A stretch of 56,541 nucleotides of DNA, counting the filler, from Squatina squatina (lineage: Eukaryota): NCBI GenBank assembly GCA_031763465.1. It is 3 parts of 3 records of this genome, joined end to end, with 100 filler letters (N's around TTAATTAATTAA, not from the genome) between each part and the next. Parts side by side here need not be neighbours in the genome. Positions count along the whole stretch, not along the records: positions 14,043 to 40,432 come from JARFOE010000046.1; 2 more parts are not named here. One strand, given 5' to 3'. Shown here in pieces: positions 16,501 to 40,432 of this stretch (the stretch's first letter is position 1; the number at the start of each line of letters is the position of its first letter). Position numbers and translations under genes: made by a program. The notes under the pieces are model-generated. The model worked only from the letters and a program-made list of their open reading frames with translations, was not told the origin of the DNA and ran no database searches.

Positions 16501-17292
16501 TGAAATGTAGGGGAAAATAATCTAGTCCTGGGATAATTTCAGGTTTCAGTTGCGCAGACAGTAGAACTCACCAGGTAACACAGTGGTTAGATAACTTCCA
16601 CATAGATGTACTTTACAGCAGGAGTCACCGAACAGCAATCAGGAGTGGGAACGCCATGCGCATACATGTCAGGGGCAGGATTTCCTGAGCTGCTACTCTT
16701 AAAGGACAGGGAGGTGGAACAGTTCCATTGAATGAGGCTGCTTTAAAGATGATATTACAGGAGGACCAACAAAGAAGGTTGGTGCGTCGAGTGAAGAGCA
16801 CAGCCAGAGCGGGGTTGACGACATTGGTGGAGAGGGTCAGTTGTCCACAGAACCTGGGAGGAGGCCAGAAAGAAATTTGTTGTTCTCAGGAATGCTGCCA
16901 AAATAAAGGCTGCTCCAAATTCTTACACTGCTTCTTGCCACACTTCACTGTTGACTCGTTGCTGTATTGCCAGGGGACAATGTACAGCACTCTGCCAAAT
17001 GCTTGTGCACTTTTCAAATGCTCTAGCACTGTTTGTTATGGGTGTTCAACACCTGAAGCTTATTACAAGAACTCTGGATGCATTATAAAGTCATGCCNNN
17101 NNNNNNNNNNNNNNNNNNNNNNNNNNNNNNNNNNNNNNNNNNNNNNNNNNNNNNNNNNNNNNNNNNNNNNNNNNNNNNNNNNNNNNNNNNNNNNNNNTGG
17201 TAACAGGCTCATGTTGGGGTCTATGGGCCTTCTCCTGTTCCGATATTCTGTGACCTCAACTCAAACAAAATGTACAAACTCATTAGTCAGTA

Positions 17293-18291
17293 TTACCTAA
17301 CTCGATAGTACAGGTGAATGGCGATGCAGATCAACCCCACTGCTAGAAGGAATAAGGGGGTGAGCTGGAGGTCGAACAGAAGGATGGAGAGGGCCGCATT
17401 AACCAACATAGAGCAGGAAATCACAAAAAGCCTGGTGATGTTGTTGTCATACTTCATGACAACAGACATCAATAGCCCGTTCAGGGCTTGGGTGGCAATG
17501 ATCACGGCCACCCAAGGCGAGTAGCCCTCGAAGAAGCTGGCGGCAACGGCAGGGGTGATGGCCGTGTGCGCAGCAAGATTGACGACGACCCCAAATGCGT
17601 ACAGGAACAGGTTCTGCAGGCTAAGGGGCAGCGGCCCGGACTTGAGCGCGCGCTCGGTGTACACGGCGGAGAGGCCGGAGATCGAGCAGTAGGCAGCGAT
17701 GGCGGCCACGCCCAGCGGCGTGATGTACAGGTGGGCGTGCGCCGCTGGCTCCTCCTCCTGGCGCATGGCCCCGGCGTGGCAGGCCCCAGCCGCCATCAGT
17801 AGGAAAAGGGCCAGCCACTTGCGCGCAGGCAGCCGCCGGCGCAAGAGGAGGCTGTAGAAGGCAGCGGTGGTGGCGATCTTGAGGTTGCTCAGCACCTGGA
17901 ACGTCACCGGGTCCATGAGCTGCTGCATGTGGACCACCAGGTTGTTGTTGGTGGCGTAAAGGACAGCAGGGACGGCGAACGGGAGGGCCGCGCGGAAGGA
18001 GACGGCGTTGCCGCAACGGACGAGCGAGCTGCAGCCTCGAGCGAGGAGCAGGGCGGAAGACGCGGAGAGTTTTGCCAGCTCGATCAGCACTACGACGGAG
18101 GAGGAGCTGAAGGGGACCCGGCCGCCCACCTTGCACAGGGTGATCAAGGGGGCGTGCGAGCCGTACGCGAGCACCGAAAGCAGCAGCAGGAACCCCCAGC
18201 CCAACCGGCCCCTCATCCGGCCCTTCGCAAGCGGCAAGCCGAGAGTACCAGAATCTTCGACAGCGTCCATTCCTTTTTCAAAGAGGCTCAT
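17293..18291 (-). CDS. SLC35A4: SLC35A4 nucleotide-sugar transporter family protein, complete single-exon ORF (332 aa)
   Basis: YGSHAPLITLCKVGGRVPF, YATNNNLVV.MQ..MDP.TFQVLSNLKI, LPLSLQNLFLYAFG, TRLFVISCS; about 10 hydrophobic segments; intronless. The second ATG (18270, MDAVEDSG) has better Kozak context and aligns with the human start. Confidence 0.96.
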   Translation of the reverse strand: MSLFEKGMDAVEDSGTLGLPLAKGRMRGRLGWGFLLLLSVLAYGSHAPLITLCKVGGRVPFSSSSVVVLIELAKLSASSALLLARGCSSLVRCGNAVSFRAALPFAVPAVLYATNNNLVVHMQQLMDPVTFQVLSNLKIATTAAFYSLLLRRRLPARKWLALFLLMAAGACHAGAMRQEEEPAAHAHLYITPLGVAAIAAYCSISGLSAVYTERALKSGPLPLSLQNLFLYAFGVVVNLAAHTAITPAVAASFFEGYSPWVAVIIATQALNGLLMSVVMKYDNNITRLFVISCSMLVNAALSILLFDLQLTPLFLLAVGLICIAIHLYYRVR

Positions 18292-18647
18292 GGAAACTTA
18301 ATTCAGAAGAAGTAAGCAACGACGGATTTCAAAAATTAGGTGCAAGGCCAGGAAACGTGTGTGTGGGGGGGGAGGGGGGGGGGTGTGGGTGTGGGTGAAG
18401 ACAGGACAAAAGTTTCTATGTAAAAGCAAGCAGGCAATTGTGCGTTCGGAAGCACCTGTCTTTCAGTCAGATTCATTGAAAGCTTCAAGCTACAGCCAGT
18501 CAAGTTTCAGCAGTCATATACACCAATAATATCGAAGGTCGGTAGCGCACCAAGCTCGCGTCAGATTGCCTTGCAGTTCCCCCTCCCGTGCACTCGGGGG
18601 TGGGGCGTGGAAGAGACAACTGGCTCTTAGTGGTGGGGAGGTGCTCC

Positions 18648-18845
18648 TTATTTTGGTCCGTTCTTCATGGAGCTCAGGTAGTCCTTGACCATGTTTTCTA
18701 TGTTGGGGACAGTGAAGTTCTGGGCCGCGTAGATCCCGGTGGCGGTGCCCACCAGCACGCCCAGGACGGCAGAGGCTCGCAGCTTGGCCACCACGTATCC
18801 CGCAAGGAACCCCTTCAGGAACGGAGAACCCAACAGGGAGCCACC
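18648..18845 (-). CDS. SLC35A4 upstream-ORF microprotein (SLC35A4-MP / AltSLC35A4), C-terminal 65 aa
   Basis: Acceptor ctcctgttccag|; encodes GGSLLGSPFLKGFLAGYVVAKLRASAVLGVLVGTATGIYAAQNFTVPNIENMVKDYLSSMKNGPK*, near-identical to recalled human DGSLLSSPFLKGFLAGYVVAKLRASAVLG..VGT.TGIYAAQ...VPN.E....DYL....KGP. The N-terminal exon(s) are not present in the window. Confidence 0.93.
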   Translation of the reverse strand, partial: GGSLLGSPFLKGFLAGYVVAKLRASAVLGVLVGTATGIYAAQNFTVPNIENMVKDYLSSMKNGPK

Positions 18846-18974
18846 CTGGAACAGGAGCAAATTCAAATCAGGTTTAGCACTTTGCTGATGCCTAGTCTTA
18901 CATTTGACCCCGAGTCGAGCTTCTGACCACATAGCCACTCCATCACCAAGACCACTTACTTCCACCTCCGTAAC

Positions 18975-19710
18975 ATAACCCAACTCTGCCTCTGCATCAG
19001 CTGATCTGCTGCTGAAACCTCGTCCGTGCCTTTGCTAATTCTAGACTTGACTATTCCAATATACTCCAAGACAGGCTCCTATCTTCCTCTCTCAATAAAT
19101 TTGAGCTCATCCAAACGTCTACTGCCCATATCCTAACTCGCACCATATCCCATTCACCCATCACCCGTGTTCTCACTCACCTACATTGGCTACCAATCCG
19201 GCAACAACTCAATTTTCAATAATAAAAACAGAAAATGGTGGAAATACTTAGCTGGTCAGGAAGCATCTGTGAAGCGAGAAACAGATTTAACGTTTCAGGT
19301 CATAGAAATCATAGTGTCAGAAATTTAGAGCACAGAAGGAGGCCATTTGGTCCATCATGTCCATGGTGGCCGGGAAAAAGCTATCCAGCCTATTCCGATT
19401 TCCCTGCTCCTGGTCTGTAGCCTTGTAGGTTATGGCATTTCAAGTGCATATCCAATTACTTTTTAAATGCTCTGAGGATTTCTGCCTCTACCACCCTTTC
19501 AGACAGTGACTTTTAGATAGCCACCAATATGTGGCTGAAAGAAATTCCCTTCTGATCCCCTCTAAACCTCCAGCCTCTTAATTTAAATCTGTACCATCTG
19601 GTTATTGAATATTCTGCTGCGTTGAATAGGCCCTTCCTAACCACACTCTCTCAGCCCCTCAAAGTTATGCCTCAATTAGGTCTGCCCTCAGCCTCCTGTG
19701 TTCCAAACAA
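18975..19710. mobile_element. Nested repeat cluster (L2 fragment, Penelope-type end, CR1-type 3' end)
   Basis: L2 motif VRAFANSRLDYSN at about 19020; aacgtttcaggtc end matching 24446-24458; agaaggaggccatttgg CR1-type tail at about 19335. Confidence 0.6.
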
Positions 19711-19794
19711 AAAAGGATAGGATTTAAATGGGAAAATCATCAATAGCTGCCATGTGAAAGTGAAAATAAATACAGAAGAAAATACGGTCTGAAA

Positions 19795-20140
19795 TTGTTG
19801 AACTGGATGTTGAGTCAAGAAGGTTGTAAAGTGCATAAACAAAATATGAGGTGCTGTTCCTCGAGCTTACTTGGAACAGTGTCTGAGGATGGAGAGATCA
19901 GAGTGGGACTGGAGCGGAGAATTAAATTTACTGCCGACCTGAAGTTCGGGGTCACGCTTACGGACCGAACGGAGGTGTTCTGGAAAGCGGTCACCCAATC
20001 TGCATTTGATCTCCCAAATGTAAAGGAGACCACATCGTGAGCAGCGAATACAGTGCACTGAATTGAAAGAAGTACAGGTATCGCTGTTTCACCTGGAAGG
20101 CGTGTTTGGAGCTCGGCACAGTGGGAAGGGAGGAGGTAGA
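19795..20140 (-). mobile_element. Penelope-like element, GIY-YIG endonuclease remnant
   Basis: CIRCSRCGLLYI.E.K.RLGDRF.EHLRSV...FNS..HS.SDLSIL...KLEEQHLIF.L.TLQP, with frameshifts. Confidence 0.85.
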
Positions 20141-20596
20141 AATAAATGATCTCTTGTTCAAAATAAATTAAAAGACACTTTAATTCAGCATTAGNNNNNN
20201 NNNNNNNNNNNNNNNNNNNNNNNNNNNNNNNNNNNNNNNNNNNNNNNNNNNNNNNNNNNNNNNNNNNNNNNNNNNNNNNNNNNNNNNNNNNNNNGTAGTG
20301 GTGTGGGTGTCTGCCAATCCTGTGTGAATGAGCTGCCAACCCGTCATACCCCACATACTCCAATAGGGTCAGCAATGGAGGGTCGCAGTGGGCACAATCC
20401 CAGCATAAGAGTCTGGATGGGATTTTGGGTCCCTAAACGATAGATAGACAGAATATAGGTAGACAGGCAGAATATAGACTGACAGACTATTGATTGACAG
20501 ACAGACATCAGATGGAACGACACAAGGTTTTCTGTGGCTAGGGGATGTTTGCTAGGTGTGTTCACTGTTGAATCTGTTTCTTTCCACCGCGGATAG

Positions 20597-20711
20597 AGAT
20601 TTTGCCTATGTAGCGAGTGACAAGGACACGTGCATGCTGAAGTGCCACGTCTTCCACTGCAACACGCCTGCAAAAGCCATCGCCACTGCCCTTCATCAGA
20701 TGTGCTCCCAG
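20597..20711 (+). CDS. APBB3: APBB3 (FE65L2) PTB1-domain exon
   Basis: Encodes (R)[47 protein letters not shown] matches APBB3 better than APBB1/2, and the divergent orientation to SLC35A4 matches human. Donor is CAG|GCAAGT. Confidence 0.85.
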
Positions 20712-20950
20712 GCAAGTCCTCTTCATTACTTGGCAAGCTAATCTATGGCCAGGCTCTGTTCTATTTCACCTCACAACGACTGCACCTTTCTTTTGTTCCC
20801 GCACAGGGTGTGGCACGCACAAGGCATTTATTGTCCATCCTGAAAGAAAANNNNNNNNNNNNNNNNNNNNNNNNNNNNNNNNNNNNNNNNNNNNNNNNNN
20901 NNNNNNNNNNNNNNNNNNNNNNNNNNNNNNNNNNNNNNNNNNNNNNNNNN

Positions 20951-22017
20951 CAATCTCCTTCTCGGGCTCGAGGATGACTTGCTTCCACTCCAGAGTTGTG
21001 GGTTCTGAGGTGACTAAATAGTCCGATATGGGATCCGCAAATTCTCCCACAGGTGGGGCAGGTGGTATTTGATGGGGCAAAAGGATGGGATGCTCGGGTT
21101 TCCACACACTCCTTCCACTGCCTGCGCTTGGCCTCCACGTGCTCCCACCAGAGAAGCTCCCAGCGGTTGGCTCCTTCATGGAAGCTTCTCCTCCAGTTCA
21201 GGCGGTCTTGGGTCAGAGATTCCCATGAGTCCATGGGGATATTACATATTTTTGTAGAGGTTTTGAGGATGTTCTTGAAGCACTTCCTCTGCCCTCCTGG
21301 AGGTTGCTTGCCTTGACGAAGCTCGGAGTAGAGTGCTTGTTTCGGGAGTCTTGAGTCAGGCATGCGGACGATGTGGCCCGGCCAATGCAGCTGGTTGAGT
21401 GTGCCCTGTGCCTCGATGCTGGAGAATTTGGCCTGAGAGAGGACGCTGATATTGTTATGCCTATCCTGCCAGTGGATTTGCAGGAGTTTGCGGAGGCAGT
21501 GTTGGTGGTATTTCTCCAGTGCTTTGAGGTACCTACTGTACATTGACCATGTCTGCGATGCTTACAGGAGGGCGGGTATCACTGCTGCCCTGTAGACTAC
21601 GAGCTTGGTGCCGGGTTTGAGGTCTTTATCTTCAAACACTCTCTTCCTCAAGCGGCAAAAGGCTGTGCTGGCACAAGTGTTGGATTTCGTCATCTATGCT
21701 TGCCCTCACTGAAAGGAGGCTCCCAAGGAATGGGAAATGATCCACGTTGCCCAGGAGCTCGCTGTGGATCTTGATAGTCAGGGGCCAGTGTTGTGCGGCT
21801 GGTCCAGGCTGGTGTAGGACCTTTGTCTTGTGGATGTTTAGTGAGAGGCCCATTCTCTCATATGCCTCAGTGAATAAATCGATGATGGATTGGAGCTCAG
21901 CCTCCAAGTGTGCGCACAGCCAAGCATCAGCTGCGTACTGCAGCTCGATGATGGAGGTTGGGATGATCTTGGTTCTGGACTGGAAGTAGGCGGAGGTTGA
22001 AGAGTTTCCCACTCATC
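20951..22017 (-). mobile_element. RTE-clade LINE, 3' portion
   Basis: ELQYAAD.. (RT YADD region), GLSLNIHKTKV, QLHW.GHIVRMPDSRLPKQ.LY.EL..G....GGQ.K.FK..LK and a terminal C2H2 finger CPTCGR...IGLFSHLRTH; frameshifted. Confidence 0.9.
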
Positions 22018-34500: not shown

Positions 34501-34947
34501 NNNNNNNNNNNNNNNNNNNNNNNNNNNNNNNNNNNNNNNNNNNNNNNNNNNNNNNNNNNNNNNNNNNNNNNNNNNNNNNNNNNNNNNNNGAAGGTGGAAT
34601 TGAGGTAGATGATTAGTCATAAACTTACTGAATGGCCTAGCATGCTCGAAGGGCCGAATGGCCTACTCCTCCTATTTCTTGTGTTCTTATAACTTTCGAA
34701 AGAGAATTAGATAAATAATTGAAGGGAAAACTTTTACAGGGCTATGGGGAAAGAGCAGGGGGAATGGGACTAATTAGACAGCTCTGCCAAAGAGCCGACA
34801 CAGTTATAATGGGCCGAATGGCCTCCTCCTGCACGGTACCATGATTTGTTGCATGTTCTATGTTGTGACAAGGTACAGTACGAAACCAACCTTTTCTTCT
34901 TCACTATCTCTCCGTTCAGTAATGCATTGTTTTTGACTTTTCTCCAG

Positions 34948-36343
34948 ATACCAGATACACACAGGCCTCCAACACTCCATCATTCGCCCGAGGCAGCCCA
35001 ACTGCCTGCCGCTCGATCAAGTGACCCTGCCCCAGAAGTTGCAGGAAGCCGGGTACTCCACGCACATGATTGGAAAATGGCACTTGGGGTTCTACAAGAA
35101 GGAGTGCCTGCCCACCAGGCGAGGCTTCGACACATTCTTTGGCACGCTGACTGGCAGCACGGACTACTACACGTACGACAACTGCGATGGCCCGGGGGTC
35201 TGCGGCTTTGACCTCCACGACGGCGAGAACGTAGCCTGGGAGTACAGCGGGAAATATTCCACCTCGCTCTACGCCCAGAAAGTGACCAAGATCTTGGCCT
35301 CGCACAGCCCCAAGGAGCCCGTGTTCATCTATGTGGCCTTCCAGGCGGTGCACACTCCGCTGCAGTCGCCGAAGGAGTACATTTATCAGTACAGGTCCTT
35401 CGGAAATGTGGCTCGGAGGAAGTACGCAGCCATGGTGACCTGCATGGATGAAGCCATCGGGAACATCACGCTCGCCCTCAAGAAATATGGCTATTACAAC
35501 AACAGCATCCTAATCTTCTCCACCGANNNNNNNNNNNNNNNNNNNNNNNNNNNNNNNNNNNNNNNNNNNNNNNNNNNNNNNNNNNNNNNNNNNNNNNNNN
35601 NNNNNNNNNNNNNNNNNNNNNNNNNNNNNNNNNNNNNNNNNNNNNNNNNNNNNNNNNNNNNNNNNNNNNNNNNNNNNNNNNNNNNNNNNNNNNNNNNNNN
35701 NNNNNNNNNNNNNNNNNNNNNNNNNNNNNNNNNNNNNNNNNNNNNNNNNNNNNNNNNNNNNNNNNNNNNNNNNNNNNNNNNNNNNNNNNNNNNNNNNNNN
35801 NNNNNNNNNNNNNNNNNNNNNNNNNNNNNNNNNNNNNNNNNNNNNNNNNNNNNNNNNNNNNNNNNNNNNNNNNNNNNNNNNNNNNNNNNNNNNNNNNNNN
35901 NNNNNNNNNNNNNNNNNNNNNNNNNNNNNNNNNNNNNNGACTGGATCCCGCCACAGAAGCTGCCCAACTTCCCGGGCAGCTGGTGGAACCTCGAGAGGCA
36001 GCGGGCGGGCCACCGGAAGTCGGTGTGGCTGTTCAACATCACGGCGGACCCTTACGAACGCCACGAGGTCTCCGGCAAACATCCCGGCGTGGTCAAAAGG
36101 CTGCTGGCCAGGTTGGCCTATTACGATGAAACCTCCATCCCAGTGCGGTACCCAGCCGAGGACCCCAGGGCTAACCCGGAACTCAACGGAGGGGCCTGGG
36201 GGCCCTGGGCGAGTGAGGACGATGAGGACCAGGGGGTGAAGGGGGTGGTGAAAAACAAGAGCAGGAAAAAATCTTGCAAGATCTGCAAGCTGAAATCGTT
36301 CTTTAAGAAACTAAACACAAGGATAATGTCCAACAGGATCTAG
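34948..36343 (+). CDS. ARSI: Arylsulfatase I, large last coding exon (412-N internal gap)
   Basis: ttttctccag| then [47 protein letters not shown]...; ARSI-specific end [20 protein letters not shown]. Confidence 0.95.
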
Positions 36344-38432: not shown

Positions 38433-38695
38433 GACCGCGTGACGGAGACCGCGTGATGGAGACTGGGTGCTCGGTGAGAGACTGACTTTGTGACGCGTGA
38501 CGGGGACTGTGTGACGGAGACTGGGTGCTCGGTGAGAGACCGCGTGACGGAGACTGGGTGCTCGGTGAGAGACTGACTTTGTGGCGCGTGGCGGGGATCG
38601 TGTGATGGAGACTGTTTGACGGAGACTGGGTGCTCGGTGAGAGACCGCGTGACGGAGACCACGTGACGGAGACTGAATGCTCGGTGAGAGACTGT
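38433..38695 (+). repeat. Modular minisatellite (GTGACGGAGAC and TGGGTGCTCGGTGAGAGAC units)
   Basis: Five TG..TGCTCGGTGAGAGAC modules interleaved with GTGACGGAGAC variants. Confidence 0.85.
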
Positions 38696-38712
38696 CACTT
38701 TGTTTTGGGCAG

Positions 38713-38866
38713 GTCCCATCTACATCATCACCGAATACTGTCGCCATGGCGACCTAGTGGATTACCTGTACAGGAACAAGCACACCTTCCTACAGCACTA
38801 CGCCGACAAAGCACGGACAGAGTCAAATACAGTCATCACAAACTCCTACAACGAGAGGCTGAAAAG
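38713..38866 (+). CDS. PDGFRB: PDGFRB kinase exon leading into the kinase insert
   Basis: gggcag|...|gtaacg; encodes (G)[40 protein letters not shown] is PDGFRB-type. Co-oriented downstream of ARSI as in human. This frame is not in the ORF track. Confidence 0.92.
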
Positions 38867-40432
38867 GTAACGTTAGTGGCTCCTATACCCTTACAACAAC
38901 AACTTGTGTTTATATAGCGCTTTAAAATAGTAAATCGCCCCAAGGCACTTCACAGGAGTGTTACCAAACAAAATTTGACACCGAGCCACATAAGCTGGTT
39001 GGGGATTCGAGGACTAGGGGAAAGAGTCCAAAAATTAGAGCCAGACCTTTCAGGAGTGAAATTAGGAAACACTTCTACACACAAAGGGTGGGAGAAGTTT
39101 GGAACTNNNNNNNNNNNNNNNNNNNNNNNNNNNNNNNNNNNNNNNNNNNNNNNNNNNNNNNNNNNNNNNNNNNNNNNNNNNNNNNNNNNNNNNNNNNNNN
39201 NNNNNNACATCATCTTGTGGCAGCGTGTCGAGGCCTTAGTTGTCTAATTCTGGCCTCAGGAGCATCCCCGATTTTATTCGCTCCACAATTGGTGGCCGTG
39301 CCTTCAGCTGCCTGGGTCCTAAGCTCTCGAATTCCCCCTCTAAACCTCTCCGCCTCTTCTTTAAGACACTTCTCATAACCTACCTCTTTGACCACTGCCC
39401 TAATTTTTCCTTATGTGGCTCAGTGTCAAAAATTTGTTTTATAATGCTCCTGTGAACCGCCTTGGGACATTTACAATATGAAAGGCACTATAGAAATACA
39501 TGTGTTGTTCGTGAAGGGCACCAGCCAGCCTGGGCTGGTGCATGCCACGTGGTGGGGCAGGAGAGGCTTGAGAGAGATTCGGTCTCGGCTTAAAATTCTG
39601 GATGGGAAACTGAATAACATCTGAGGAAAATGCAGCAAAAATGGCAGAAACGCATGGGGGGAAAAAAAGGCACCGTATACAGCCTGCTTGACACAAAGAA
39701 TTTATATATCTGTGTTTAAACTACACATACAGATTTTACCCGAATTACATTTACAAAAGGTAAAGATTATCTAAGTTAAAAGGAGCAATATATTCCTTTG
39801 CTTAAAAAATGCGATACTTGTATCTGAAACCTTTCAACAGGTTGGAGTAGAAATTACTCGTCAAAACTTTGTAACCACTAGTTTGTACTACCTGGCAGAA
39901 CAGGGTTAAACTGCAGAACTGAAACATTACATGGGGTGGGAGGTCATTGAACCTGATTGAAGAGTTAATTGATCAGCTTCTGGAGAGTGAAGGGAAGCAG
40001 GCAGATGAGGTGGGGACAATTAAAACCTGTTTCTTGGGAATATGCAGCATATTCTGGACAATCTTAAATTAATTTTAAGATTAGACTTTTTAAATCTCAG
40101 TGACTTCAAAATCAGGTTTGGCCATAGGTATTTTCCCCCACCAGAATTACAGCTTTAAAAGTTCTCGTGGTGTGGGATAAAGTCTGACATTACAGCCGAA
40201 TACAAAATGGTTAGGCAGAGCGAGTAAAGTCAATACAATCATCAAGTGCAGAGTTAAGACTTTCAAAAAATCATAGCAAGAAATGCAGTTTTTTAAAACT
40301 ATAAAATGTAAAATATTACAGACAAAGACCTAAATAATTTTACCAATTTTTCTTTTATAAAAATGTAAACATTTATATACACACACAATTTGACTGACTT
40401 AAACATTGCTTGTGTCTCCAGAATGAACCCCT

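Follow-up and report, generated by a model that had tools for sequence, protein, structure and literature searches.

Does the shark Squatina squatina encode the STREMI microprotein (SLC35A4-MP, AltSLC35A4) and the transporter SLC35A4 on one messenger RNA, or are these two genes that happen to be adjacent? In the stretch of DNA analyzed (the window; 56,541 nucleotides, filler included, from assembly GCA_031763465.1), the relevant sequence lies on the minus strand inside a single N-free contig (17198-20194, equivalent to C46:402320-405316), which holds a microprotein exon, a 356-nt spacer and an intact SLC35A4 ORF in this order and on the same strand. A putative 3' splice site (18846-18875, with the AG at 18847-18846, a pyrimidine tract and a branch-like CTGAT) precedes the last coding part of the microprotein (18648-18845; 65 codons plus TAA, with a phase-0 start at 18845), which is defined by homology and by a DUF4535 domain. 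Beyond the spacer (18292-18647), the intronless SLC35A4 ORF (17293-18291) directly follows the STREMI exon and encodes 332 aa from the ATG at 18291, or 325 aa from the better-supported ATG at 18270, and the first 95 nt of the 3' UTR (17198-17292) are then ended by an assembly gap. The GC content at third codon positions is 0.80 for the microprotein exon and 0.83 for the SLC35A4 ORF, compared with an overall GC of 0.52 for the spacer, a contrast that speaks against frames open by chance. The preliminary description had reported a 65-codon frame opening at an acceptor, the length of the spacer and an intact 332-aa ORF on a gap-free contig; every number was reproduced exactly, and its identification of both ORFs agrees with the Pfam domains and named shark homologues described below. 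We conclude that this is very probably the shark orthologue of the vertebrate STREMI-SLC35A4 locus, with the two ORFs likely carried by one spliced mRNA.

The 65-codon frame contains a DUF4535 domain (Pfam E=2.4e-9, 37.1 bits against a cut-off of 28.3), and the 65-aa piece aligns with residues 39-103 of 103-aa proteins. A sawshark protein (P0001) is 95% identical over 65/65 residues (62/65 identical), six further shark and ray proteins are 84-86% identical among the matches listed, and all 357/357 candidates proved to be homologues of the piece at E<=0.001, with the best 120 of the 357 matches listed. The exon is matched once in the genome assembly. In the alignment, homology to the 103-aa orthologues begins exactly at the first base after the acceptor AG and closes at the column where the orthologues, themselves approximately 103 aa long, also stop. 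On a crude pyrimidine score the acceptor is no better than 16th among the 171 AGs in the contig, and it is therefore identified by the homology boundary and not by its strength. According to the available excerpts of the papers cited here and below, the 103 human codons are distributed over three exons, the third of which contains the entire SLC35A4 coding sequence (PMC12183330), and the STREMI coding sequence of lamprey and hagfish comes in three pieces (15 nt, 78-93 nt and the remainder), one phase-0 junction of which falls within one or two residues of the Squatina acceptor position (PMC13303939). A single-exon reading of the microprotein was rejected: the frame stays open for 63 codons into the intron and includes an ATG, but this extension matches no orthologue and runs into a repeat. 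That interspersed repeat (18901-19712 and 19715-20192) fills nearly the whole assembled intron, has copies on other contigs at 88-91% identity and ends approximately 55 nt before the acceptor, with some copies matching up to 18878.

Features linked to the function of the microprotein are retained in the exon. Glycines G50, G54, G67, G71 and G75 are invariant in 20/20 aligned sequences and constitute the GxxxG glycines (G50-G54 and G67-G71-G75), all intact in Squatina squatina; mutation of G54, G71 and G75 destabilizes human STREMI (PMC13303939, excerpted text). Hydropathy computed from the sequence is highest around residues 52-56 and 65-73, and the basic residues K59 and R61 separate these two hydrophobic segments. 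The C-terminal residues 87-103 display an amphipathic pattern, with a helical hydrophobic moment of 0.55 that was reached by 5/10000 shuffles; for residues 87-100 the moment was reached by 57/10000.

The long ORF harbors a Nuc_sug_transp domain (Pfam E=1.7e-46), and its named best BLASTP matches are shark SLC35A4 proteins at 75-79% identity among the matches listed (120 of 457 matches, from 7998 scored candidates), with one bird record lower among them labelled A1. Judged by these named matches, the ORF is closest to SLC35A4 and not to SLC35A1, SLC35A2, SLC35A3 or SLC35A5. Translation of the transporter more likely starts at the second ATG (18270) than at 18291, because the former has G at both -3 and +4 and falls in a column occupied by Met in 14/16 aligned homologues. 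The ATG at 18291 has T at -3 and no Met in its column in any of the homologues (0/16); a longer N-terminus is present in 2/16, one of which also starts MSL. A genome search with this query for a second SLC35A4-like copy or a multi-exon parent returned only weak matches besides the locus itself (35% and 28%), which fits, without proving, the published model of retroposition and loss.

The two proteins differ in how strongly they are conserved. In the seven species for which both proteins could be picked by name among the matches listed, the microprotein exon is more identical to Squatina than the transporter in 7/7 pairs (microprotein/transporter 95/81, 86/76, 83/75, 77/61, 80/59, 75/56 and 78/61 percent, the first pair of values being those of the sawshark), with mean identities of 0.82 and 0.66, respectively. 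Not one of the 261 transporter windows of 65 aa reaches 0.82. At a finer scale, the 23-residue microprotein core scores 0.94, a value reached by 0/303 transporter windows of 23 aa, for which the maximum is 0.86 and the first window scores 0.44. The earlier claim that the microprotein core is more conserved than the transporter N-terminus is thereby borne out, and the same asymmetry is already in print for zebrafish and human (66% for the microprotein against 46% for the transporter; PMC12183330, available excerpt). A metagenome scan yielded one relative among the 598 stretches listed; it aligns at 59% with the DUF4535 part alone, and its locus contains nothing that matches the transporter.

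The exon preserves only the C-terminal part of the microprotein, and the three-part STREMI coding sequence of human, lamprey and hagfish indicates that two coding exons are absent upstream. The preliminary description had proposed one missing N-terminal exon; upstream coding sequence is indeed missing, but the three-part structure calls for two exons and not one. Residues 1-38 were not found when seven shark and ray N-termini were compared by TBLASTN with the window and 50,000 scaffold bases (31,432 of them non-N), where the matches listed cover two of the queries. A 91-sequence profile of residues 6-38 gave a best E of 0.15, on the wrong strand, in the window plus 50 kb of scaffold; its control scored 70 bits but was itself among the profiled sequences. 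The 15-nt first exon, sought with a regular expression, had no match in the same sequence. Genome-wide, one 33-aa protein query for residues 1-38 returned no candidate, and four patterns (two exact and two with 2 mismatches) gave 0 matches, while a control pattern found exon 3 once. The assembly comprises 1,152,659 contigs, and from it we recovered only 304/500 residues of TMCO6, mostly on loose contigs of 1-2 kb, so that approximately 40% of this protein is missing as well; the absence of exons 1 and 2 accordingly carries little weight. These exons likely reside in the 100-N assembly gap at 20195-20294, where the promoter and the opening exons of a divergent APBB-family gene are probably hidden as well. 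That the gap likely hides exons is indicated by the first coding piece past it, which starts no earlier than the 3' third of a plus-strand PTB domain, and by the failure of the searches above to place exon 2 elsewhere.

Whether the two ORFs share a transcript depends in part on the spacer between them. A sequence scan found no AATAAA, ATTAAA or TATA box in these 356 nt; among 20 poly(A) hexamer variants tested, only AATGAA (18477) lies inside the spacer, and an AATAAG overlaps the microprotein stop. No poly(A) hexamer occurs in the assembled 95 nt of 3' UTR either, which places the 3' end of the transcript farther downstream. Two upstream ATGs occur within the spacer, one opening a 5-codon ORF (18517-18500, minus) and the other a 46-codon ORF (18476-18336, minus) that crosses a C-rich simple tract. 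By consensus matching, position 18455 is a weak candidate donor, and AGs resembling acceptors precede 18415 and 18296. The AG before 18296 lies 5 nt ahead of the ATG at 18291, is accompanied by a branch-like motif and ranks 19th of 171, against 16th for the microprotein acceptor; an intron running from the candidate donor to this AG would measure 159 nt. We infer that both ORFs occupy one exon in Squatina squatina, but with this weak donor and these acceptor-like AGs the one-exon layout may fail for some transcripts. It is conceivable, if unlikely, that SLC35A4 keeps its own acceptor 5 nt before the ATG at 18291 along with the weak donor, such that forms skipping the last microprotein exon or dropping the 159-nt spacer piece would exist besides the bicistronic mRNA. 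If true, transporter expression escaping uORF repression would represent an intermediate stage in the fusion of two genes. Speculatively, joining exon 2 to the AG before 18296 would end the frame after two codons, at a TGA overlapping the ATG at 18291 (18297-18288, minus).

A stronger version of this separation, in which the two adjacent genes are expressed mainly as separate transcripts, the microprotein mRNA ending in the spacer and SLC35A4 using a promoter or acceptor of its own, would account for the weak poly(A)-like hexamers AATGAA and AATAAG and for the acceptor-like AG next to the transporter ATG. It would also be in keeping with the excerpted reports that annotations of the sawfish and thorny skate divide the locus into two transcripts (PMC13303939) and that single-ORF isoforms are annotated in other vertebrates (PMC12183330). 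Yet the ORFs are separated by merely the 356 nt in which the canonical poly(A) signals and a TATA box are lacking, and the split sawfish annotation is contradicted by long reads, as Iso-Seq reads of Pristis pectinata span both ORFs according to the text and legend of Fig. EV8D,E (PMC13303939). We therefore regard mainly separate transcripts as quite improbable, and favor a shared mRNA.

Two other explanations abandon either the microprotein or the independence of the two products. The microprotein exon could be an orphaned, decaying remnant that lost its 5' exons, leaving only SLC35A4 expressed, as might be suspected from the failure to find residues 1-38 in the assembly and from the repeat copy that occupies the intron to within approximately 55 nt of the acceptor. 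A decaying exon is difficult to reconcile with 62/65 residues identical to sawshark, a frame free of stops and frameshifts, an intact acceptor and a third-position GC of 0.80, while the loss of the N-terminus is matched by the approximately 40% of TMCO6 also absent from the assembly, and this explanation is very improbable. Finally, a bird record of 427 aa (P0199) carries both Pfam domains, as would be expected if splicing, read-through or frameshifting produced one fused membrane protein from both ORFs, but the record is labelled LOW QUALITY PROTEIN and is likely an annotation that joins two ORFs. A fused protein was rejected as exceedingly implausible, since in Squatina the two ORFs do not share a frame and stops intervene in the spacer, the orthologues share their stop column at approximately 103 aa, and the human products sit in different organelles (PMC13303939, available text). 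Two separate proteins from one spliced mRNA remain the preferred interpretation.

The surroundings of the locus are broadly consistent with the assignment. Two TMCO6 exons lie on the minus strand 1.3 kb beyond the SLC35A4 stop, across a gap (15971-15786, residues 105-166, 94%; 15331-15212, residues 165-204, 83%, both relative to shark TMCO6), with later exons on loose contigs and no exons for residues 1-104 found in the assembly. On the opposite side, a plus-strand exon at approximately 20597-20711 encodes the 3' third of the first PTB domain of an APBB/FE65-family protein (Pfam PID E=2.6e-12; one PDB match, APBB1) and appears to end with a GC-type donor. We presume this exon to be likely APBB3, and the flanks then agree with what we take to be the human gene order, APBB3-SLC35A4-TMCO6. 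In three species the records matching the microprotein, SLC35A4 and TMCO6 give an identical length for the longest contig, suggesting that the three genes lie on one chromosome there. Provided that the scaffold order is correct, the heads of both divergent genes must fall in the gap at 20195-20294; however, the scaffold contains many 100-N joins, so the order of the flanking genes may be a product of scaffolding and not independent evidence. Three further contigs bear TMCO6 matches around residues 230-270 at 55-79% identity, one with a stop (L013, L014 and L016; C81612, C650205 and C655065), and are possibly a TMCO6 duplicate or pseudo-exons. Elsewhere in the window, a plus-strand sulfatase-domain exon encodes 196 aa (34937-35524; Pfam E=1e-34), a weak protein-kinase-like piece falls below cut-off (38688-38867, plus; E=0.0004), and broken minus-strand frames at 20761-22012, which have no Pfam match, resemble a LINE reverse transcriptase near its 3' end.

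Extrapolating from the orthologues, we propose that two upstream exons would supply residues 1-38 and that scanning ribosomes would mostly translate the 103-aa microprotein. The product would be a two-helix protein of the inner mitochondrial membrane that oligomerizes with MIC10 and helps to maintain MICOS and the shape of cristae, while the microprotein uORF and the two spacer uATGs would repress the Golgi transporter until phosphorylation of eIF2-alpha allowed ribosomes to reach the strong ATG at 18270. The models for this scheme are human and mouse STREMI, described in the excerpted text as a two-pass inner-membrane protein that oligomerizes with MIC10 and favors large MICOS assemblies (PMC13303939), and the human uORF, which represses SLC35A4 until the integrated stress response relieves the repression in a manner dependent on the uORF ATG (PMC13303939, PMC4383229). 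Lampreys and hagfish possess STREMI but have no SLC35A4 close to it, while the pair is adjacent in jawed vertebrates (PMC13303939, same excerpts); in the model published there, the arrangement arose when a copy of SLC35A4 was retroposed behind STREMI in the jawed-vertebrate stem.

Comparison with published systems places the Squatina locus among known arrangements. As far as the available portions of the reports describe it (PMC13303939, PMC12183330, PMC4383229), the human and mouse STREMI-SLC35A4 locus has the same order and strand, the GxxxG glycines and extra upstream ATGs, keeps the C-terminal part of the microprotein together with the whole intronless transporter coding sequence, and likewise shows the microprotein to be the more conserved product. 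It differs in being known with expression, localization and stress data, whereas the Squatina locus is described from sequence alone, and a total of 11 AUGs is reported for the human leader (PMC4383229, excerpt) against two out-of-ORF ATGs in the Squatina spacer; the Squatina 5' exons are missing from the assembly. The locus of other cartilaginous fishes (PMC13303939, partial text) belongs to the same clade and shares the tight linkage and intronless transporter, with the sawfish microprotein 86% identical to the Squatina exon. Judged by its closest named matches, the Squatina locus likely comes from a shark nearer to the sawsharks. STMP1, of the DUF4535 family, has a C-terminal DUF4535 in common with the exon but is a gene of its own with a link to complex III (PMC13303939, excerpt), whereas the similarity of the exon to STREMI extends along its full 65 residues and takes in those upstream of the domain. 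Other bicistronic mRNAs with a uORF microprotein, such as that of MIEF1 as excerpted (PMC4383229), are similar in layout, with a conserved coding uORF before the main ORF and a ratio that shifts under eIF2 inhibition, but the proteins are unrelated (LYR family in MIEF1).

The locus is therefore already known, and our analysis adds one more shark to a published bicistronic structure, jawed-vertebrate origin and cartilaginous-fish synteny. Guo et al. 2026 dated the bicistronic locus to jawed vertebrates and reported its synteny in cartilaginous fishes (PMC13303939, available portions), so that the jawed-vertebrate age suggested in the preliminary description is in accord with the literature but not new. 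The accompanying statement that standard annotation would miss the microprotein does not hold for the protein, as 6/7 of the top shark and ray matches bear the name "SLC35A4 upstream open reading frame protein" and the seventh is called "hypothetical"; it holds in part for the shared transcript, which the sawfish and thorny skate annotations split, as excerpted from the same paper. The value for annotation lies in a headless microprotein exon within a fragmented assembly, which a gene caller could miss or could start at the repeat-derived ATG in the intron. The Squatina sequence can also be used to compare jawed vertebrates in the length of the spacer and the uATGs it contains.
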